Notes under the pieces: generated by a model
Database searches by the model: none
What the model saw: only the letters and a program-made list of their open reading frames with translations
Told to the model about the DNA's origin: nothing
Program-made: the position numbers and the translations under genes
Origin: a virus
DNA length: 18,373 bases
Reading direction: 5' to 3' (one strand)
IMG/VR virus record: IMGVR_UViG_3300045988_028413
Location: 1 to 18,373 of that record
Shown: piece after piece, positions 3,826 to 18,373 of the stretch
How positions within the stretch are numbered: the first letter of the stretch is position 1
Layout: each line of letters starts with the position of its first letter

Positions 3826-3852
3826 CGGTCAGTGATCAAGGGAAGTTATACT

Positions 3853-5304
3853 ATGACAGTGCAAGACAATAGGGTGGGATTATGGTGTGTGGATAACGTC
3901 ATACGATTTACGGATGGCACCGTGCTACGTGACATTATCGCCCCTAACCGGCTGTTGGCGTCCATTATGTCGGGTGGCAAACTCACAATATATGTGACTA
4001 ACCCAGACGTTTTAGACCCGTTTATTGCGCACGTCGTGCACTCCCTCCCCCACGATGAGCATAATGCTAACCTCAGCTGGGACGCCATTGTCTCCAAAAA
4101 AGGCAAGTTTTTCAGCTTCACGGTGCGTATAGATCGAGAAAATTCCGCACGATTTTTCGACATATCGAATCTTTTACGAGAGAATTGCCGTCTCACCATG
4201 ACCGACGCCCAGCTACTCAACATTTTGCGTGAGTATAATGACCGTGGCTTATGTAAGATTACGGCGGGCGGTGCGAGCATGGAAGCGTTCGCGTCCGGCG
4301 AGTGGAAATGGTATTACGACAAATTCCCCCAGCTGGAACCCGAAACTAAAAAGTCATTGCATGATGCCTATATCGGAGGATTCATGATCGCCAAAGAAGG
4401 CGTATATGGTAAGGCTATCGACGTTGATTGCAATAGCATGTATCCGAGCATTCTGAGGGACGAATGGCTCCCATGGGGCGAACCGGAACAATATGAAGGC
4501 AAATACGAAGAAGATAGCGACATGCCATTGCATTGTGATGAACTCACGTTCCGTGCGGAATTGAAACCAGACGGATACCCTTTCCTGCTCGACAATCGCA
4601 GTGTCTACGGACTCAACAGGCTCACTTCCACCCGTGGCTACATCACCCGCGTGCTCACTGATATCGACCAAGAACTGCTCTACGACAATTACGAGGTGAC
4701 TATATACAAGCATGTGCGAGGGTGGAAGTTCCGTCGCTCCAAGGGATTTTTTCGCTCGTTCGTCGATGAATGGGGGGAACTGAAACAGCGGGCGACGGGT
4801 GAGAAACGACAAATGGCCAAACTCATTATGAACGCCCTGGTTGGGAAAATGGCTAGTTTGCCCAAGGGTGCCGTCATGCTCCCTACCTCCAAAGATGGAA
4901 TTACCCTCGATTGGGATGTGGCGCAACGTGAGGAATCGAATTTGAAAACCGATTTTCTCCCCGTGCCCGTATGGGTGAATGCTTATGCACGTCGCAAACT
5001 TATGACCGCCTGCCATGCGAACGCAGATCGGCTACTGTATGCGAACACGGACGGGTGCATCCTATCCGGTTGGGATCCCGTGCGATCATGCGAGATACAT
5101 CCAACCGAACTTGGAAAGTGGAAGATTGCCGCACGATATGAAAAATTGACTATCCTCGGAATGAACCGCTATCAGGGTTGGCGGGATGATGGGGAGGTTG
5201 ACGTATGCATGGCCGGAAACATGTTTTCCCAGCCCATCCCCTACGAAAAGTTCAGGCATGGAACGCAAGTCATGGATGATTACGGGACAATGGTCATGCT
5301 ATAA
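3853..5304 (+). CDS. Protein-primed-type family B DNA polymerase (small, ~483 aa from ATG 3853; alternative GTG start at 3832)
   Basis: Motifs read in the translation: YIGGF (the YxGG/A motif); DVDCNSMYPS (motif A, Dx2SLYPS); KLIMNALVGKMAS (motif B, Kx3NSxYG); YANTDGC (motif C, YxDTDS); and a C-terminal LGKWKIAARYEK...NRY (KxY region). Strong SD aagggaag before ATG 3853. No D-x-E ExoI motif is visible in the first ~60 residues. Confidence 0.9.
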   Translation: MTVQDNRVGLWCVDNVIRFTDGTVLRDIIAPNRLLASIMSGGKLTIYVTNPDVLDPFIAHVVHSLPHDEHNANLSWDAIVSKKGKFFSFTVRIDRENSARFFDISNLLRENCRLTMTDAQLLNILREYNDRGLCKITAGGASMEAFASGEWKWYYDKFPQLEPETKKSLHDAYIGGFMIAKEGVYGKAIDVDCNSMYPSILRDEWLPWGEPEQYEGKYEEDSDMPLHCDELTFRAELKPDGYPFLLDNRSVYGLNRLTSTRGYITRVLTDIDQELLYDNYEVTIYKHVRGWKFRRSKGFFRSFVDEWGELKQRATGEKRQMAKLIMNALVGKMASLPKGAVMLPTSKDGITLDWDVAQREESNLKTDFLPVPVWVNAYARRKLMTACHANADRLLYANTDGCILSGWDPVRSCEIHPTELGKWKIAARYEKLTILGMNRYQGWRDDGEVDVCMAGNMFSQPIPYEKFRHGTQVMDDYGTMVML

Positions 5305-5305
5305 T
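5297..5305 (+). promoter_or_regulatory. Perfect extended -10 TGcTATAAT overlapping the DNA polymerase stop codon
   Basis: catgcTATAATgcc. Identical to the element at 2787-2795. It would fire a transcript across the 5306-5480 non-coding stretch. Confidence 0.4.
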
Positions 5306-5311
5306 GCCTAT

Positions 5312-5480
5312 TGTCTTCCTGAGCGTCGATTTTCGACTGGGATCAACATGAGTCGGACTGCCACGGCTGAGAATGCCGCCGACCGTGAACATCACTATCG
5401 TGGCGGTAGTGCCCTACGATTGTCAACTCGCGCTCACATAAGACGTTTCGACCCCGCGTGATTGCGGGGTCATTTATTTT
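5312..5480 (+). ncRNA. Candidate small non-coding RNA (promoter at 5297, intrinsic terminator at 5450-5480); possible packaging-RNA (pRNA)-like or regulatory RNA
   Basis: This is the longest non-coding stretch in an otherwise tightly packed genome. It is GC-rich with several short inverted repeats (gtcga-ttt-tcgac at 5325-5337; cacgg...ccgtg at 5362-5387; gccgccg...tggcggt). It is bracketed by a perfect extended -10 and a canonical terminator. The only ORF inside (37 aa from ATG 5348) lacks a convincing SD. Confidence 0.3.
5450..5480 (+). terminator. Rho-independent terminator (gaccccgc-gtgatt-gcggggtc + atttatttt)
   Basis: Perfect 8-bp GC-rich stem followed by a T-tract. It sits downstream of the DNA polymerase gene, and therefore of the early operon. 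Confidence 0.75.
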
Positions 5481-5489
5481 CTCGCCGCA

Positions 5490-5498
5490 TGATATAAT
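5490..5498 (+). promoter_or_regulatory. Perfect extended -10 promoter TGaTATAAT; probable late (structural) operon promoter
   Basis: gcaTGATATAATttt lies immediately after the terminator and 36 nt upstream of the scaffold-like gene, which has the strong SD ataaggagc. Confidence 0.55.
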
Positions 5499-5533
5499 TT
5501 TGATGGAAACATTACCGATCATAAGGAGCTTGC

Positions 5534-5833: not shown

Positions 5834-7549
5834 ATGTCCAATATTCGACCCCTCGCGGGTAAGGGAGACGTTGAGATCTTCAACGCCGTCCGAAACGCCA
5901 CTTCACCGCAGTTTCAGACTCGCATTCCGAGCGCTACGCAGGGAAATATTCGCAATGCCGTGGATACCATGCGCAATTTTCCATATTTGCGCGACGAATT
6001 CACCGGTGTTTTGATTCAGCGTCTTATCGGTCTGTATATCCAGCATGCTGACTGGGATGATCCGCTTAAGCTTATCGGCTCCCCACGCACTCTGAAGCGC
6101 TACGGCTCCACGTACGAACAGGCCGCTGTTGGTTTGGTCAAGGCGCGTACCCGTAATTTTAATAAAGAGTACTTGGGTGATGATGTGTATGGGCGCTACT
6201 CACTGCCAACCGCAAGCGTATTCCACCCCCTTACTTTTGATCATTACTATCCGGTTACCATCCCAGAGGACGCCTTGCTCACCGCGTTCGATGGCGAGTC
6301 CGGCATGTCGGATTACATTTCAGAGATCATGAACGCGCCGATCTTGAGCGATCGTAACGACATGTACTTGATGAAGACGCAGACCTTTGCAGAATACGCT
6401 CGCAAGGGTGGCTTCTATCGTGTTCACACCCCTGATGTGGGGGCGGCAAACTCCACTGAAGCGGACGCCAAGGGACTGCTGCGACTCATCCAGCAGGTGG
6501 CGAACGAACTCAAGGCTAGCCCAATGTCAGCCATGCCACGATATAATGCCATGAGCTGGGTGACTCCATGGCGCGACTCGGAAGCTATCCTCTTTGCCAC
6601 CCCGCAGGTGATCGCCGCGCTTAATGTGGAAGCTCTCGCCGCCGCGTTTAATATTGACAAGGTTAATGTGCCGTATCGTATCATTCCGATCCCGGAAGAC
6701 ATGTTCGGTATCGGTGGGCAGGGCGGCAAGGTACAGGCCGTCTTGACCACGGAAGACTTCTTCTTCTGCTGGGACGAGATGTTGGAGACGACGAACAGCC
6801 CCGTTAATCCGATTGACGGCACTCGCAACATCTTCTACAAGCATAGGGGGTCTATCACCCCTAATCCGTTTGCTAACGCGGTTCTTTTTTGGACAGGCAA
6901 AGACTCCAATAAGTCCGTGACCTTGCCAGATACGCTCACCACTTCGAAGCCAGTCTTTGAATTGAAAGTGCAGAAATACGGCCAGCCCGCCATCACCCCG
7001 CAGAATGTGGAACGTGGCGATCTCGTGCAAGTGGTGTCTACCATCGAAAGCGCGAACAAGACTAAGGCGTCCTTCCAGCCGGTCGGCATCGAATACAAGG
7101 TCGAAGGCGCGACCTCCCAGTTTACCAGCATTGATAATGACGGTATCCTGCGCTGTGGCCTTGACGAAACCGCCGAAAGCCTCAAGGTTACCGCTCAGGC
7201 AACCTACATCAATCCGGCTACACCGGAAATCGACCAGACCGTTTCCGCTGCACTGGACGTGCCGGTTAAGGGTACTTGGGTCGGCGGATTCGTCACCGGG
7301 GCACTGAAAGAAATCCATGTTGACGGGGCAAGCACTGTCAAGCAAGGCGAGAGTATCAAACTGACCGCCTCGGTTGTCTTGTATGACGGCAATAAGGTTG
7401 ATATCAGCAACATGGCCGATTGGAATGTGGATGCGAACGCCACCGTCGATAAGACAGGCAAGGTCACTGGTGCGAGTGTTGGTACGGCCAGGGTTTCAGC
7501 CAAGTTCGCGGGTGTAGTAGGCAACAGGAATATCAGCGTCACCGCCTGA
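5834..7549 (+). CDS. Major capsid protein (571 aa) with C-terminal Ig-like (Big_2-type) domain
   Basis: Strong SD (gttaggagatatatataATG) and a terminator downstream. N-terminal EIFNAVRNATSPQFQTRIPSATQGNIRNAV resembles the phi29 gp8 N-terminus ([29 protein letters not shown]) as I recall it. The last ~90 aa (VKQGESIKLTASVVLYDGNKVDISNMADWNVDANATVDKTGKVTGASVGTARVSAKF) have the Big_2 signature. Position after the scaffold matches. Confidence 0.85.
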   Translation: MSNIRPLAGKGDVEIFNAVRNATSPQFQTRIPSATQGNIRNAVDTMRNFPYLRDEFTGVLIQRLIGLYIQHADWDDPLKLIGSPRTLKRYGSTYEQAAVGLVKARTRNFNKEYLGDDVYGRYSLPTASVFHPLTFDHYYPVTIPEDALLTAFDGESGMSDYISEIMNAPILSDRNDMYLMKTQTFAEYARKGGFYRVHTPDVGAANSTEADAKGLLRLIQQVANELKASPMSAMPRYNAMSWVTPWRDSEAILFATPQVIAALNVEALAAAFNIDKVNVPYRIIPIPEDMFGIGGQGGKVQAVLTTEDFFFCWDEMLETTNSPVNPIDGTRNIFYKHRGSITPNPFANAVLFWTGKDSNKSVTLPDTLTTSKPVFELKVQKYGQPAITPQNVERGDLVQVVSTIESANKTKASFQPVGIEYKVEGATSQFTSIDNDGILRCGLDETAESLKVTAQATYINPATPEIDQTVSAALDVPVKGTWVGGFVTGALKEIHVDGASTVKQGESIKLTASVVLYDGNKVDISNMADWNVDANATVDKTGKVTGASVGTARVSAKFAGVVGNRNISVTA

Positions 7550-7570
7550 CATAGGTATCGACTGGTAAAA

Positions 7571-7606
7571 TAGGTGCGAGAATTATAATCTCGCACCTAT
7601 TGTTTT
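7571..7606 (+). terminator. Rho-independent terminator whose 9-nt loop carries TATAAT (taggtgcgag-aattataat-ctcgcaccta + ttgtttt), followed by the AGGAGG SD of the next gene
   Basis: Perfect 10-bp stem plus a U-tract. It shares the 14-mer attgttttaggagg with the 15765-15780 cassette. Confidence 0.7.
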
Positions 7607-7616
7607 AGGAGGGATC

Positions 7617-9857
7617 ATGAGCGCAAACGATTTGCCCATCAATTTTTCGTATGCAAAATGGACGCCCAACACGCGTTTCAAGCTGTGTAATGTGCCGTGG
7701 GATATGGGCTACCGGGATATCGTCAAATGGGATAAACAATCCCAGAAAGAGTATTTCGACCGGTTGAATGGTATTGAATTTACAGACTGCACCATGGCTA
7801 AATACGGACTGCCCGTAAGACTGCCTATTCCGTTTGCGCAGGCTAGCCAATATAATTATTTGATCGCCACGAACGATTATGACTTCGATACCCCCCGTAG
7901 CTGGTATTATTTCATCCAGACATGCGATTATATCAACGCCAACACCACACAGCTCAATATCCAGTTGGACGTATGGCAATCATTCCAGCACGATATTCAG
8001 TTGGGCAATGCCTATGTAGAGCGCGGCCATGTGGGCGTAGCCAACGAAAACGCATGGAAAGACTGGGGAAAAACCTACCTTGATCTGCCCGAAGGACTCG
8101 ACACCGGCAAATGTACGGTACTGACTAACGAATCATGGAAGCCATTGATGGACATAGGATCACATGACGGCGTGAAATACACGTCATATGGACTGATTAT
8201 CGTAAGCACCACCGACTTGGAAGCAAGCCCTGGCACCAAAGATAATCCGGTAGTCAATACCGCTACGGGCAGTGCTTTTGAAAGTCAGTTGAATGGCACA
8301 TCCATGTATTATTTGGACACTCCCGCCGATATTGTCGCATTCTTCACTGAAGGCATGAATGCGCCATGGGTAACGCAAGGTATTTGCGGCATCTACGCGG
8401 TGCCTCATCTACCGCAAGCCTTATTGGATGGTCAGCCGAAAAAGACGGAACTCTTCGGTCACTCGGTCGGTTTCATCGGCAATTGCTGGGAACTACGCAA
8501 ACGAAACGACAATAGCAACGCACGCTACGCGGACATTATCAATCTCAAAAATTTCCGAGACACTTTTACTTTGCCCGAACGCTATAAGTACCTGAAGAAA
8601 TTCCTTACCGCCCCATACGCCTATATCGAATGTTCATGCTTGAACGGTACCGTGATCGCGTATGAGCCTGAGCAGATTCCATCGGCTGACTTGATTATCC
8701 GCGAGTCGTGGAATTACGCGCCCCCTTCCCCACGCTTGAACTTCTACGTGAGAGGTTATCATGCAGGGAACTTGGGCGAACGCCAACCACTACCAGATAG
8801 CAAAGGATTGCCTATCGATACGGGCGACATGCTCGACGCATCATTTGGCATTACAAATTTCCCGACCTTTATGGCGGTGAACAACGGATCCGCTCTCGCT
8901 CTTGCGAACAGCGCATACACCCGTCAATATGCGCAACAATCTGCAGATTGGGGGTATCAAAAAACACAAATGGGCATCAACAACGCTTACGCTCAGGCAC
9001 AACTTGGAACGCAGTATGCGAGCGCACAGAACAGGTTGGGCGCGTCCAACCGGAACGCCATGAATGCGATCAGCAATCAATCTGCGCAGATGGGTACCGA
9101 TTTGACGTTGAAGAACCTCGGATTCAGCAACCAGATGGCGCAGTTGAACACGATTGGGTCGGGTGTGGCGAACGCTGTGGGTTCCGCCGTTACCGGCAAT
9201 ATGGGAGGTGTGGCCGGTGCCATAGCGGGCACCGCGATCGGCGCATGGACAAACCAGCAAACCTACAGCAACAACGTTTCAACCGCCAACCAACAATTGG
9301 CGAACACGCAGACCACGAACAACGCCAGTACCTCACAGGCCAACGCTTTTTCGCTCGCGCAAACCAACTTGAGCAATCAGCAAACCATGCAACTCGCGGA
9401 CATGAACAGACAGTTGGCGCAGGCCACGGCGCAAGGCGATTACGAAAACACGATCGCGGGCATCAACGCGCAGGTTCAGCAGACTCAGACCGTACCGCCG
9501 ACCACGTCCGGCGCTCTTGGAGGTGACGCTTTCAATTTGGCGAACGGACTGATTGGCGTCATGGTGCGGTTTAGGCAAATCTCTCCCGCCGCCATGCAAG
9601 CCATCGGAGAAGTATGGCTACGCTACGGGTATTACGTGCAACGGTTCATGAAACTGCCTGAAAATCTTATGACAATGAGCAATTTTACCTATTGGAAACT
9701 ACACGAGTTGTACGTGCGTTCGAGCACATGTCCCGAAGAGTACCGCCTAACTGTGAAGGGTATTTTCGAGAGTGGCGTGACCGTGTGGACTGACCCCGAG
9801 AAAATCGGTGTCACCGATTATGCGGACAATGTGCCTTTAAGCGGTATTGCATACTGA
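7617..9857 (+). CDS. Tail knob / distal tube protein (phi29 gp9-like), 746 aa, with an expanded Q/N/A-rich low-complexity central region
   Basis: Located directly upstream of the portal gene, as gp9 is upstream of gp10. The Gly/Ala-rich stretch GSGVANAVGSAVTGNMGGVAGAIAGTAIGA and the C-terminal YYVQRFMKLPENL...GIFESGVTVWTDPEK resemble the phi29 gp9 flexible loop and its C-terminal ...GITLWHTD as I recall them. About 190 aa of Q/N/A-rich sequence (QLANTQTTNNASTSQANAF...) are inserted. Confidence 0.7.
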   Translation: MSANDLPINFSYAKWTPNTRFKLCNVPWDMGYRDIVKWDKQSQKEYFDRLNGIEFTDCTMAKYGLPVRLPIPFAQASQYNYLIATNDYDFDTPRSWYYFIQTCDYINANTTQLNIQLDVWQSFQHDIQLGNAYVERGHVGVANENAWKDWGKTYLDLPEGLDTGKCTVLTNESWKPLMDIGSHDGVKYTSYGLIIVSTTDLEASPGTKDNPVVNTATGSAFESQLNGTSMYYLDTPADIVAFFTEGMNAPWVTQGICGIYAVPHLPQALLDGQPKKTELFGHSVGFIGNCWELRKRNDNSNARYADIINLKNFRDTFTLPERYKYLKKFLTAPYAYIECSCLNGTVIAYEPEQIPSADLIIRESWNYAPPSPRLNFYVRGYHAGNLGERQPLPDSKGLPIDTGDMLDASFGITNFPTFMAVNNGSALALANSAYTRQYAQQSADWGYQKTQMGINNAYAQAQLGTQYASAQNRLGASNRNAMNAISNQSAQMGTDLTLKNLGFSNQMAQLNTIGSGVANAVGSAVTGNMGGVAGAIAGTAIGAWTNQQTYSNNVSTANQQLANTQTTNNASTSQANAFSLAQTNLSNQQTMQLADMNRQLAQATAQGDYENTIAGINAQVQQTQTVPPTTSGALGGDAFNLANGLIGVMVRFRQISPAAMQAIGEVWLRYGYYVQRFMKLPENLMTMSNFTYWKLHELYVRSSTCPEEYRLTVKGIFESGVTVWTDPEKIGVTDYADNVPLSGIAY

Positions 9858-9865
9858 CATATATA

Positions 9866-9893
9866 ATAGGGAGAGTATAATAACTCTCCCTAT
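9866..9893 (+). promoter_or_regulatory. Hairpin atagggagag-tataataa-ctctccctat with TATAAT in the loop, ending 4 nt before the portal ATG; a second TATAAT lies at 9862-9867
   Basis: Perfect 10-bp stem with no U-tract. It overlaps the end of the tail-knob gene (stop 9855-9857). Confidence 0.5.
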
Positions 9894-9897
9894 TACT

Positions 9898-10854
9898 ATG
9901 TTAAGGACGGTTATAGTGGGTAAACGTAATAATGCACGTAAGGCCGCGCATTGGGACAATCAGAGTGTGCTCGGCTCCATGTGGGGCAACCTCAATCTGC
10001 CCGAAATGCGGCAAAGCTTACGAATTAATCAATATATGAAGCTGATTGAAATGCTGGCAGTAAGCCGATTCAAATGGATTAACTTACCCCCGTACATTGA
10101 TGAAAGATATTTGGAACTGACTTTGTTTGAAAACGGTTTAGCCCTCTTCTTCCCCGATAAAAGAAAAGGGGTAAACCGTTTTATGGTTACGTCCGGTAAT
10201 ATTGGCGGGGTTAACAACTATAATAATCCAACGTCATTCCAGCCGGTGGCAACCCATTATTCGCACCCACAGATCGGTTCAAAAAAGTGCGTGCCGATTT
10301 GGGACAACCAGCTACGTTGTACCATGATTGACGTCATGTGGAATTATGCGACGCGATTGGCCATTGCAGATCGTGCGCTGGATGTGAATTTGGATAATAT
10401 TTCCGTGCCGTTGATTATCGCCACGTCCGAAACCAACAAATTGACCGCCCAAAACCTCATGAAGGCGAGAGAAGACGGCGACCCATACATTTACACCTAT
10501 GATAGTGCCGATATCACCGGCATGTTCCAAACATTCCCCAACGTCACACCATTCCTTGCGGACAAAATCATCACCACGAAAACGCAGATCTGGAACGAAT
10601 TAGTCAATTATCTCGGCATCGACAACAGCACTACGGAAAAGAAGGAGCGGTTGCTAGAAAGTGAAGTCACGGCAGGCAACAGTCGAACGAATGTGTTTCG
10701 ACTGAGCTATTTGAAGGCACGCCAACAGGCGTGCGATACGATTAACCGGTTGTGGCCGCAAATGGCTGACTCGGGGTGCCCCATCGGCATTGAGTGGAAT
10801 GACACCACGTCTGGCGGTCTATTGGACGTGGAAGGCAACAAGGAAGAGGAATAG
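9898..10854 (+). CDS. Portal / head-tail connector protein (phi29 gp10-like)
   Basis: [35 protein letters not shown] compares with phi29 [64 protein letters not shown] compares with [51 protein letters not shown] compares with FLKSREEACEKINELYG. The start is uncertain: ATG 9898, or GTG 9916 ([10 protein letters not shown], resembling phi29 MARKRSN) with SD aagga. The ORF-track TTG start at 9847 overlaps the upstream hairpin. Confidence 0.9.
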   Translation: [318 protein letters not shown]

Positions 10855-15670: not shown

Positions 15671-15675
15671 ACGTG

Positions 15676-15684
15676 TGATATAAT
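15676..15684 (+). promoter_or_regulatory. Perfect extended -10 promoter TGaTATAAT upstream of the packaging ATPase gene
   Basis: acgtgTGATATAATaagg, six nt after the CHAP gene stop. Followed by the conserved tgtcggcatgtgat motif. Confidence 0.5.
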
Positions 15685-15734
15685 AAGGAATGTCGGCATG
15701 TGATGACTTCCCTTGAGCCGACCGTAACTAGTGG

Positions 15735-15774
15735 GAGCGTAACGGTGGTCATGACGTTACGCTCTCATTGTTTT
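15735..15774 (+). terminator. Hairpin (gagcgtaacg-10 nt loop-cgttacgctc) + tcattgtttt, followed by AGGAGG and ATG 15788; second copy of the terminator-SD cassette
   Basis: 10-bp perfect stem and U-tract. It shares attgttttaggagg with 7599-7613. Confidence 0.6.
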
Positions 15775-15787
15775 AGGAGGTGAGCGT

Positions 15788-16855
15788 ATGGCATTGCAAA
15801 CATTGGCCGAAGACGACTATTATGACTTGCATAACCTGCTCACCCGCAACGCTCCATGGAATTTCGTGATCGGAGCACGCGGCTTAGGCAAGACATTTGC
15901 GGCAAAGAGATATGGCATAAAAGAGTACATTAAGCACGGCCATGAGTTCATCTATCTCAGGCGTACGGACGTAGAACAACACCGCAAGGAAACCTTCTTC
16001 AAGGACATTCAAGAGTTCTTCCCCTCTTACGAATTTCGTGTGAATGGTGAAAAAGGACAATTGCATAAGACATCATGGGATGAAAAGGACTGGCGCACAT
16101 GCTGTTATTTCGTCGCCCTATCCCAAGCGGGCGGACTAAAATCAGTGGCCTACCCTAAAGTGCACTTGATTATTTTCGATGAAATCTTCCCCGACAATCT
16201 CAGATTCTTAAGTAACGAAGTGAACTCGTTTAGCGAGTTTTACAATACCGTTGACCGTTGGCAGGATAGAACAAAAGTACTATTCCTCTCTAATGCCGTC
16301 CAAAAGGCTAATCCATATTTTGCGAAATACCGACTTGACATTGGAGCACAGCAATCCAATCAACAGCAATACAAATTGTATTGTGGTGGTTTCGTATGTC
16401 TCGAATTGGCAGACTATGGCGGATTCAGTGCGAAAGTCGCACAGTCCAAGTTCGGACGATTTCTTGAGCAGTATGACGGGGATTATGCGGATTATGCAAT
16501 CAGAAACAGGTTCCGAGATGAATCGGACACATTACTGGCACCCATCCCCCCAGATGGCGAACTCTCCTACATTTTGGACACTACCGATTATGCGCGTTTT
16601 GGAGTGTGGGTTTCCGTATCCGAACGCGATGGGCATGTTTCACAATATGTTTCACGACGTATCCCCAAAGACAATACCAGACCCGTCTACACGCTCGACC
16701 CCAACCATGTTGACGAACACACTTGGTACGTTAAAAAGTCAGATGATATTATGCGACGGTTAACCACCGGCTATCGGCTGGGAAAAATACGGTTCGATGA
16801 TTCACAGGTGAAAGCCGATTTTGGCTTGATCATCGGAGAATTACTAGGAAAGTAA
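15788..16855 (+). CDS. DNA packaging ATPase (phi29 gp16-like), 355 aa
   Basis: NFVIGARGLGKTFAAKRYGIKEYIKHGHEFIYLRR compares with phi29 gp16 NFVIGARGIGKSYAMKVYPINRFIKYGEQFIYVRR (Walker A). HLIIFDEIF is the Walker B. LFLSNAVQKANPYF compares with ICLSNAVSVVNPYF. Confidence 0.95.
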   Translation: MALQTLAEDDYYDLHNLLTRNAPWNFVIGARGLGKTFAAKRYGIKEYIKHGHEFIYLRRTDVEQHRKETFFKDIQEFFPSYEFRVNGEKGQLHKTSWDEKDWRTCCYFVALSQAGGLKSVAYPKVHLIIFDEIFPDNLRFLSNEVNSFSEFYNTVDRWQDRTKVLFLSNAVQKANPYFAKYRLDIGAQQSNQQQYKLYCGGFVCLELADYGGFSAKVAQSKFGRFLEQYDGDYADYAIRNRFRDESDTLLAPIPPDGELSYILDTTDYARFGVWVSVSERDGHVSQYVSRRIPKDNTRPVYTLDPNHVDEHTWYVKKSDDIMRRLTTGYRLGKIRFDDSQVKADFGLIIGELLGK

Positions 16856-17917: not shown

Positions 17918-17931
17918 TTTGACAGCATAAG

Positions 17932-17966
17932 AAAGCCCCTAGGCAAACCCCTAGGGGCTTTTACTT
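17932..17966 (+). terminator. Rho-independent terminator (aaagcccctagg-caaacc-cctaggggcttt + ttacttttacc) at the inner edge of the right ITR
   Basis: 12-bp perfect stem (containing a cccctagggg palindrome) plus a T-tract. It ends the rightward late operon 7 nt before the ITR, into which the leftward ITR gene copy converges. Confidence 0.75.
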
Positions 17967-17972
17967 TTACCT

Positions 17973-18373
17973 ATCACGCTTCCTCAAACGCTTCCACAAA
18001 ATCATCAGACGGAAACGAATCACAATCCTCATAACCCTCAATAGTCATATTATTGACCACCGCCACATGATGCAGATTCTCAACAATCACATCAATATCA
18101 AAATCAGAGAGTTGCTGACCACTGTTCAGAATATAATCCTCGGCGTAATCCTTAATAACGGTGTTGTTAATCATTTTATTTTTCCTTCCCTTGAAGTTGA
18201 TAACTACACTATAACACAAACAAAAACACGACACGCCCGAAAACAAACGAATGCAAAATATTAAAACACAGTTGCCAACCGGTCGGTAAGCAATTAGATA
18301 TTTAGACAAACATCTAACATTGCTGCCTGTCTGGAAGAGCATTTCCCCCATTCCATGGCAAACGCTGTCGTCC
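17973..18373. repeat. Right inverted terminal repeat (~401 bp)
   Basis: Reverse complement of 1-401; see the left ITR entry. Confidence 0.9.
17974..18174 (-). CDS. Second, identical copy of the ITR-encoded acidic 66-aa protein
   Basis: Mirror image of 200-400, and the only minus-strand gene in the window. Its own promoter-like TGtTATAGT is mirrored at about 18208-18216. Confidence 0.6.
   Translation of the reverse strand: MINNTVIKDYAEDYILNSGQQLSDFDIDVIVENLHHVAVVNNMTIEGYEDCDSFPSDDFVEAFEEA

Follow-up and report, generated by a model that had tools for sequence, protein, structure and literature searches.

Prohead RNA (pRNA) has been described as unique to phi29 and its relatives among the Bacillus phages (PMC5066667; PMC11476376). 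These RNAs share only ~12% sequence identity, and in phi29 pRNA the kissing bases are A45–C48 and G82–U85 (PMC5066667). For the phi29-like Lactococcus phage asccphi28 it has been stated that 'there is no evidence for a pRNA' (PMC7823558), and the origin of pRNA has been left as a question in the literature. The only earlier claim that we found for an actinophage is a 'packaging RNA' annotated in Actinomyces phage Av-1. Here we analysed IMG/VR record IMGVR_UViG_3300045988_028413 over its entire length of 18,373 bp (hereafter the window), a complete phi29-like podophage genome whose nearest cultured relatives are the Bifidobacterium phages BP1 (81% identity) and BD811P1-3 (~76%). Between its DNA polymerase gene and its late genes lies a gap from which, judging by sequence comparison, a structured RNA of ~165 nt would be transcribed. 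We lean towards the view that this RNA is the window phage's counterpart of phi29 pRNA.

The gap measures 229 nt (5305–5533) and extends from the polymerase stop codon (TAA, 5302–5304) to the next start codon (ATG, 5534), exactly as drawn in the original prediction, which had proposed a promoter-to-terminator unit at this place. The prediction had called it the largest non-coding stretch of the genome; this holds for clearly non-coding DNA outside the perfect 401-bp inverted terminal repeats (ITRs; 1–401 and 17973–18373), which have to be excepted. Its description as GC-rich did not hold, since the G+C content of 0.51–0.56 is similar to that of the surroundings. The extended −10 box overlapping the polymerase stop, the intrinsic terminator at the end of the gap and the second promoter right behind it were all recovered, and what had been noticed as several short inverted repeats is base-pairing that belongs to one covarying multi-helix RNA fold. 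In five GenBank relatives the equivalent gap (228–231 nt) carries no annotation in any record, and the paper describing phage BP1 does not mention such an RNA. The elements of the unit are as follows, R1 being the covariance model that we built on the RNA core.

5297–5305, + strand: extended −10 promoter TGCTATAAT of the RNA gene, spanning the last polymerase codons and the stop codon
5306–5312, + strand: unconstrained spacer from the −10 box to the first helix, 51% conserved, the lowest value of the region
5313–5444, + strand: structured core, its ends paired with each other (R1, covariation)
5313–5317/5440–5444, + strand: helix P0, 98.5% paired, three covarying pairs
5321–5326/5430–5435, + strand: helix P1, 100% paired, three covarying pairs
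5327–5335, + strand: extra hairpin P2 (CGA-UUU-UCG) inside the A-helix-like stem, 99.2% paired, two covarying pairs
5339–5341/5412–5414, + strand: helix P3, GGG with CCC, closing a three-way junction, 100% paired
5347–5387, + strand: C/E arm consisting of helix, bulge and E hairpin (covariation)
5347–5356/5379–5387, + strand: C-like helix of 9 bp with one bulged G
5357–5363, + strand: CE-like bulge ACUGCCA, 7 nt, on the 5′ side only
5364–5378, + strand: E-like hairpin CGGC-UGAGAAU-GCCG with 4 bp and a 7-nt loop, the most conserved part (94–98%)
5393–5411, + strand: D-like hairpin of 7 bp with the 5-nt loop GUGGC (5400–5404), 7/7 pairs covarying, 100% paired
5415–5429, + strand: single-stranded return strand to P1, 15 nt, with UACGAU (5415–5420) nearly invariant and the rest variable
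5450–5481, + strand: intrinsic terminator, a G+C-rich stem of 8–9 bp followed by a U tract; the stem covaries and is 94% conserved
5490–5498, + strand: extended −10 promoter TGATATAAT of the late operon, 97.6% conserved, an instance of the enriched motif

The TGCTATAAT box is 97.7% conserved in 80 relatives, including the four-fold degenerate third base of a Leu codon. The motif TGNTATAAT occurs six times in the window against 0.63 expected (none of 200 shuffles reached six), namely at 643, 2787, 5297, 5490 and 15676 on the + strand and at 7927–7935 on the − strand, and all five + strand copies lie at gene junctions. Because of this enrichment and placement, both −10 boxes of the gap are instances of a phage promoter motif and not chance matches, and the + strand copies probably mark the transcription units of the phage. 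From its distance to the −10 box, the transcription start would fall at about 5310–5313, right at the first helix, which fits the low conservation of the spacer. At the other end, the core closes 5 nt before the terminator, whose stem (5450–5471) has nine pairs, seven of them G-C, followed by ATTTATTTTC. This terminator ranks second among the terminator-like sites of the window, and its stem changes between relatives from CCCCGCG/CGCGGGG to CCCTCCG/TGGAGGG, preserving the pairing. By these conserved and enriched promoter and terminator motifs, the RNA would be a discrete short transcript.

We compared the gap across 80 IMG/VR loci collected via the capsid protein, 5 GenBank relatives and 5 metagenome contigs. 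The last came from 18-mer scans of bacterial-genome and metagenome contigs, in which most of the matches listed were due to chance and at least five were true members, all metagenomic. R1 had exactly one match in each of the 91 related loci (91/91) and one in the window. In the model-based alignment of the core (~132 nt), 98.0% of cells were paired and 26 of 41 pairs showed compensatory changes; sliding the partners lowered the pairing to 33–51%, and none of 500 shuffles reached any of these measures. The result did not depend on the model: with a plain MAFFT alignment and a hand-drawn structure, 96.0% of cells were paired compared with 35–48% after sliding the partners by 1–3 columns, compensatory changes were present in 30 of 49 pairs, and RNAalifold recovered the same helices independently. 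P3, for instance, changes from GGG/CCC to AGG/CCU in locus L281 and to GAG/CUC in L052. For P2 an alternative is also compatible according to RNAalifold, in which its UCG pairs with CGA at 5417–5419. The internal loop between P0 and P1 (CCU/ACAU) varies in sequence and length among relatives. Overall, the core is 87% identical across the 80 relatives, compared with 59% and 55% at the flanking third codon positions of the polymerase and capsid genes, respectively, and some of its unpaired bases are 94–98% conserved. Taken together, conservation and covariation over the 91 loci strongly support the structured small RNA between promoter and terminator that the original prediction had suggested, and a conserved structured RNA gene of ~165 nt on the + strand, probably transcribed independently, is well supported.

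The covariation also bears on the strand and on the kind of molecule. G-U combinations make up 301 of 3335 paired cells (9%); on the opposite strand these would be A-C, and pairing falls to 89%. Because of this asymmetry the fold belongs to an RNA of the + strand, and both a − strand RNA and a DNA element were rejected. A DNA-level element, such as sites for regulators (like the p4 and p6 sites in phi29) or a signal for replication or packaging, would suit the position, as the early/late boundary of phi29 is a regulatory DNA region. Such sites would not explain compensatory changes that keep pairs between positions up to 130 nt apart, nor G-U cells that are tolerated only in + strand RNA, and we regard this explanation as very improbable.

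An open reading frame (ORF) of 37 codons starting with ATG 5348 is present in the window, as had been noted together with its poor Shine-Dalgarno sequence; we found no Shine-Dalgarno sequence, and the ORF is the tail of a frame open from 5186. Among 77 distinct relatives the ATG is kept in only 38, and start-to-stop lengths fall into the three frames in nearly equal numbers (30/25/22). There is no codon periodicity, and third positions show no excess variability. With neither ATG nor frame conserved in these 77 homologues, peptide coding of the gap was rejected, and we give a 37-aa product practically no credence.

The conserved sequence could also be a passive 3′ untranslated tail of the polymerase mRNA which, together with the terminator, shields the early transcript and separates early from late transcription. 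Early transcription must enter the region, and the terminator is strong. However, stabilization of a 3′ end requires a terminator hairpin only, and would leave unexplained a multi-helix junction with highly conserved unpaired bases in which every helix register is kept by compensatory change. Nor would a tail need a dedicated promoter whose conservation includes a four-fold degenerate codon position. We therefore consider a passive tail improbable.

The fold was derived first, and its comparison with the RF00044 consensus structure, placed on the phi29 sequence, was made afterwards. In the Rfam consensus, phi29 pRNA has an A helix formed from both ends of the molecule, with a 3-nt bulge; by analogy, P0 and P1 together are the equivalent of this helix. 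The remaining arms correspond one by one and in the same order, and four of the helix or loop lengths agree. The C helix has 9 bp with a 1-nt bulge in both RNAs (5 + 4 bp in phi29), followed by a bulge on the 5′ side only (9 nt in phi29 and 7 nt in the window), an E helix of 4 bp in both and an E loop of 6 nt in phi29 and 7 nt in the window. UGAG lies within the E loop of the window RNA as well as in that of phi29 and B103 pRNA (UUGAGU). The D helix has 6 bp in phi29 and 7 bp in the window, the D loop 5 nt in both, and no base intervenes between D and the closing helix in phi29 pRNA or between the D-like hairpin and P3 in the window RNA.

The likeness extends to the pairing of bulge and loop. 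On the phi29 sequence, the kissing bases A45–C48 form the final four positions of the bulge and G82–U85 those of the D loop. In the window RNA the bases at the same places, GCCA (5360–5363) and UGGC (5401–5404), are complementary and 98.8% paired. The pair 5360/5404 is G-C in 65, G-U in 9 and A-U in 8 of 82 distinct sequences, and never A-C; A at 5360 always occurs with U at 5404 (8/8 distinct sequences). Several lineages show the A-U state, and within a single clade L033 has G-C whereas L020 and L060 have A-U. A second apparent contact, in which the P2 loop (UUUU) would kiss the E loop (GAGAAU), was rejected: the two look complementary, yet variants of the P2 loop are never compensated.

The two phages also share the type of genome and motor, both being phi29-like, protein-primed podophages with a gp10 connector and a gp16 ATPase. 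The window genes concerned, all of them on the + strand like every gene of the window, are listed below; genes for a gp9-like tail knob protein and a lower collar protein are also present.

3832–5304, + strand: protein-primed B-family polymerase (PF03175), with its stop codon TAA at 5302–5304
5534 (ATG), + strand: 92-aa gene, the first of the late operon, followed by the major capsid gene
5834–7549, + strand: capsid protein, family match to Phi29_MCP
9847–10854, + strand: gp10-type connector (PF05352, E = 3.7e-39)
15788–16855, + strand: gp16-type encapsidation ATPase, full length (PF05894 positions 6–319 of 331, E = 9.6e-45)

The phmmer alignment of the ATPase to phi29 gp16 (PDB 7JQQ chain A) covers residues 6–318 of 332 and includes the C-terminal domain; the original prediction had already taken the portal and ATPase genes for homologues of phi29 gp10 and gp16. 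The likely N-terminus of the connector (MLRTVIVGKRNNARKAAHW, window 9898–9960) is basic, as is the RNA-binding N-terminus of phi29 gp10 (MARKRSN...).

Gene order is likewise comparable. In the leftward early operon of phi29, the genes for the single-stranded DNA-binding protein, the terminal protein and the polymerase are followed by small ORFs, promoter A1 and the pRNA. In the window, genes for a single-stranded DNA-binding protein, a terminal-protein-like protein and the polymerase are followed by the promoter and the RNA, and then by the scaffold-like and capsid genes. The pRNA had been imagined as relocated in the window phage; this turned out to be unnecessary, as the phi29 pRNA gene likewise comes after the polymerase, closing the early operon, and is served by a promoter of its own. 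What differs is orientation: the early block of the window is oriented like the late block, so that the RNA directly precedes the scaffold-like and capsid genes and lies in the middle of the genome, whereas phi29 pRNA lies near an end. The window phage further differs in its host, which belongs to the Actinomycetota, a different phylum from the hosts of the Bacillus phages. The suggested analogy with pRNA thus gained support from the arm-by-arm match of the folds, the covarying bulge–loop pairing and the phi29-type connector and ATPase.

We infer a packaging function for the gap RNA. According to this model, the RNA would be transcribed from the promoter at 5297–5305 and ended by the terminator at 5450–5481. 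Its copies would be linked head to tail by intermolecular pairs between GCCA of one molecule and UGGC of another, and the ring so formed would sit at the portal vertex of the empty capsid. The connector or the capsid may be contacted by the E hairpin, which is invariant, and by the junction region; afterwards the RNA would leave the particle. The terminator may correspond to domain II of phi29 pRNA, which is dispensable. In size the two RNAs are similar, with a core of ~132 nt plus a 3′ hairpin in the window RNA and 117 + 57 nt in phi29 pRNA.

A non-coding gap at this junction recurs in other phi29-like phages of actinobacteria. R1 did not match any other actinophage genome, and analogues were therefore found by position and folding. 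The gap folds into an RNA of 105–113 nt in nine Curtobacterium phages (four subgroups), in Voltaire, in four Arthrobacter phages and in RHph_N3_8 (loci L089:3938-4046, L352–L359, L090:4765-4869, L087:4991-5095, L471–L473 and L474:956-1060; all unannotated). Among these phages are Pize, Ayka, Thatch and Trapezoid of Curtobacterium, Voltaire of Glutamicibacter and the Anjali group of Arthrobacter. Each of these RNAs has an end-to-end closing helix, a C helix, a 5′-side bulge, an E hairpin with UGA in its loop, a D hairpin and a strong terminator. As in the window, the RNA gene lies behind the polymerase gene, in some cases with a small ORF between them, and ahead of the scaffold-like and major capsid genes; the late genes begin ~20 nt past the terminator of the RNA, and no promoter is evident between them. 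Several of the folds form a clean three-way junction whose closing helix is ~20 bp long, and in this respect are closer to phi29 than the window RNA is. A literature search yielded no published description of the Curtobacterium, Glutamicibacter, Arthrobacter and RHph_N3_8 RNAs.

In these RNAs, too, bulge and D loop are complementary over 3–5 bases (GCAA/UUGC, UUGCA/UGCAA, UGC/GCA, CGC/GCG, CAGCU/AGCUG and UGUUG/UAACA); besides the window family, nine further phage groups show such complementarity with other sequences. Between Curtobacterium subgroups UGC/GCA is replaced by CGC/GCG, a compensatory change. Taken singly, the cases with 4–5 bp have P values of ~0.01–0.07 against random loops, compared with 0.04 for phi29 itself. 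The RNA annotated in Av-1 (misc_RNA, NC_009643 16295–16402; L088) is of another kind, although it too was claimed as a pRNA for a phi29-like phage with an actinobacterial host. Situated at the right end, it overlaps two ORFs of the opposite strand, is unrelated to the window RNA in place and sequence, and shows no better folding than shuffled sequence does (z = +0.53).

A number of observations weigh against a prohead RNA. As regards the proposed kissing interaction, covariation is seen in only one of the four bulge–loop pairs, the other three being invariant, wobble-tolerant or mismatched in a minority, and A5363 is replaced by U in ~9–11 of 96 IMG/VR copies with no compensating change. In Arthrobacter phage Tillums both bulge and loop have changed uncompensated, leaving 3 bp, and complementarities of 3 bp are not significant by themselves against random loops. 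Moreover, sequence cannot separate an intramolecular pseudoknot from intermolecular kissing. The scaffold deviates from that of phi29 as well: the closing stem of the window RNA is shorter (3 + 6 + 5 bp), and its A-helix equivalent is broken by the extra hairpin and the 15-nt single strand, neither of which exists in phi29 pRNA. The junction linkers are 5 + 5 nt in the window RNA and 1 + 3 in phi29, and the three-base CCA bulge by which the A helix of phi29 pRNA binds the ATPase has no clear counterpart in the window RNA, where the variable internal loop CCU/ACAU lies between P0 and P1. The folding energy of the core is unremarkable (minimum free energy z = −1.67 for the core and −3.3 with the terminator), although single-sequence values of this type are uninformative.

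RF00044, the search of which had been proposed with the original prediction, also came out negative: neither the whole window nor 5295–5490 (196 nt) alone gave a match at the gathering score or at E≤10, and for this reason we do not file the window RNA as a member of that family. This negative result says little, however, because the model gives even a genuine pRNA, that of Bacillus phage B103 (L475 172–287), 50 bits against its gathering threshold of 100. It follows from this score, half of the threshold, that standard annotation misses the pRNAs of Bacillus phages outside the phi29/PZA group.

Two further observations against a prohead RNA come from related phages. The honeybee Bifidobacterium phages BadAztec1 (L086:5779-5956) and BadAargau2 (L111:1934-2106) have an RNA of different shape at the same place, mostly rod-like, covarying and closed by GUGAGCG/CGCUCAC. 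In these phages TGCTATAGT or TGCTATAAT overlaps the polymerase stop, and the 3′ hairpin has no U tract. Structured and covarying as they are, these RNAs do not fit the pRNA layout and were rejected as examples of it. In Curtobacterium, Glutamicibacter and Actinomyces phages, the late genes begin ~20 nt past the terminator with no obvious promoter, an arrangement that would suit a cis-acting leader as well.

This last arrangement lends some weight to the main alternative, namely that the gap encodes a regulatory RNA with an intramolecular pseudoknot which governs the switch from early to late transcription, be it as a leader or attenuator controlling read-through of the terminator at 5450–5481, as a put-like modifier of RNA polymerase, or as a trans-acting small RNA or protein sponge. 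In its favour, the RNA is placed precisely where early and late genes meet and has a terminator at its end, and in the related actinophages read-through must occur because no promoter is visible between terminator and late genes. The high conservation of the unpaired segments UACGAU and ACUGGGA and of the E loop hints that a ligand or protein binds, and the bulge–loop pairing could lie within one molecule. The put RNA of phage HK022, a cis-acting antitermination RNA, is comparable in being structured and situated at an operon boundary with a promoter upstream and a terminator downstream. In contrast to the window RNA, put is built from two simple stem-loops and has neither a three-way junction nor bulge–loop pairing. 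Within the family of the window phage, moreover, late genes need no read-through because the conserved, near-consensus promoter follows the terminator. We saw no conserved anti-terminator pairing with the terminator stem, ahead of which the core is already closed. No riboswitch, ribozyme, leader or small RNA family of Rfam matched; the 4227 covariance models of Rfam 15, run on the window and on the 196-nt stretch, gave only sub-threshold hairpin matches to the terminator, and ARAGORN found no tRNA or tmRNA gene in the window. Finally, a regulatory function would turn the arm-by-arm match to pRNA and its co-occurrence with gp10 and gp16 into coincidence. On balance, we find a regulatory RNA unlikely, though a possibility to be reckoned with.

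We thus retain the prohead RNA as our preferred interpretation. What is new, in our view with somewhat better than even confidence, is a divergent counterpart of prohead RNA outside the Bacillus phages. Whether the phi29-type motor ancestrally included a ring-forming prohead RNA seems to us evenly poised. In that case, it would have been retained in phi29-like phages of Actinomycetota, namely the human-gut Bifidobacterium phages of the window family and the Curtobacterium, Arthrobacter and Glutamicibacter phages, always just after the polymerase gene, its kissing sequences drifting while the architecture and the UGA-containing E loop stayed fixed. If true, the origin of the RNA component would move back to the common ancestor of phi29-like phages, with a bearing on the question of why an ATPase as small as gp16 depends on an RNA adaptor. 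Structural studies and RNA nanotechnology would gain ~100 divergent natural pRNA scaffolds and kissing pairs from the window family, in addition to those of several other families, and annotators would gain a place to look, the junction between polymerase and scaffold genes. The pRNA interpretation is directly testable because BP1 and BD811P1-3 are cultured phages.

Other parts of the window were considered as sites of a pRNA. The ITRs, in the left one of which a pRNA-like RNA would have counted against the original prediction, are conserved with BP1 only at 124–204 (97%). This block contains a promoter (TGTGTTATAGT) and a ribosome-binding site, with an ATG near 205, and has no fold, so it was rejected as a pRNA candidate. 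A 125-aa ORF in the ITR (23–400) is not conserved. A second promoter-to-terminator unit is situated at 15671–15787, directly upstream of the gp16-like ATPase gene. It comprises TGATATAAT (15676–15684), ~45 nt of further sequence, a 16-bp hairpin (15733–15766) with a U tract, and a ribosome-binding site before the ATG at 15788. Its fold has z = −4.3, and the unit is 91% identical in BP1 and barely alignable in BD811P2. Being a simple hairpin unit with poor conservation in BD811P2, it was rejected as a pRNA candidate; it may represent a small RNA, or else serve the ATPase gene as a leader or attenuator. Two more hairpins were seen in the window, a strong one after the capsid gene (7550–7616; z = −5.1) and one near the right end, just inside the ITR (17931–17962), whose 13-bp stem makes it the best terminator of the window.

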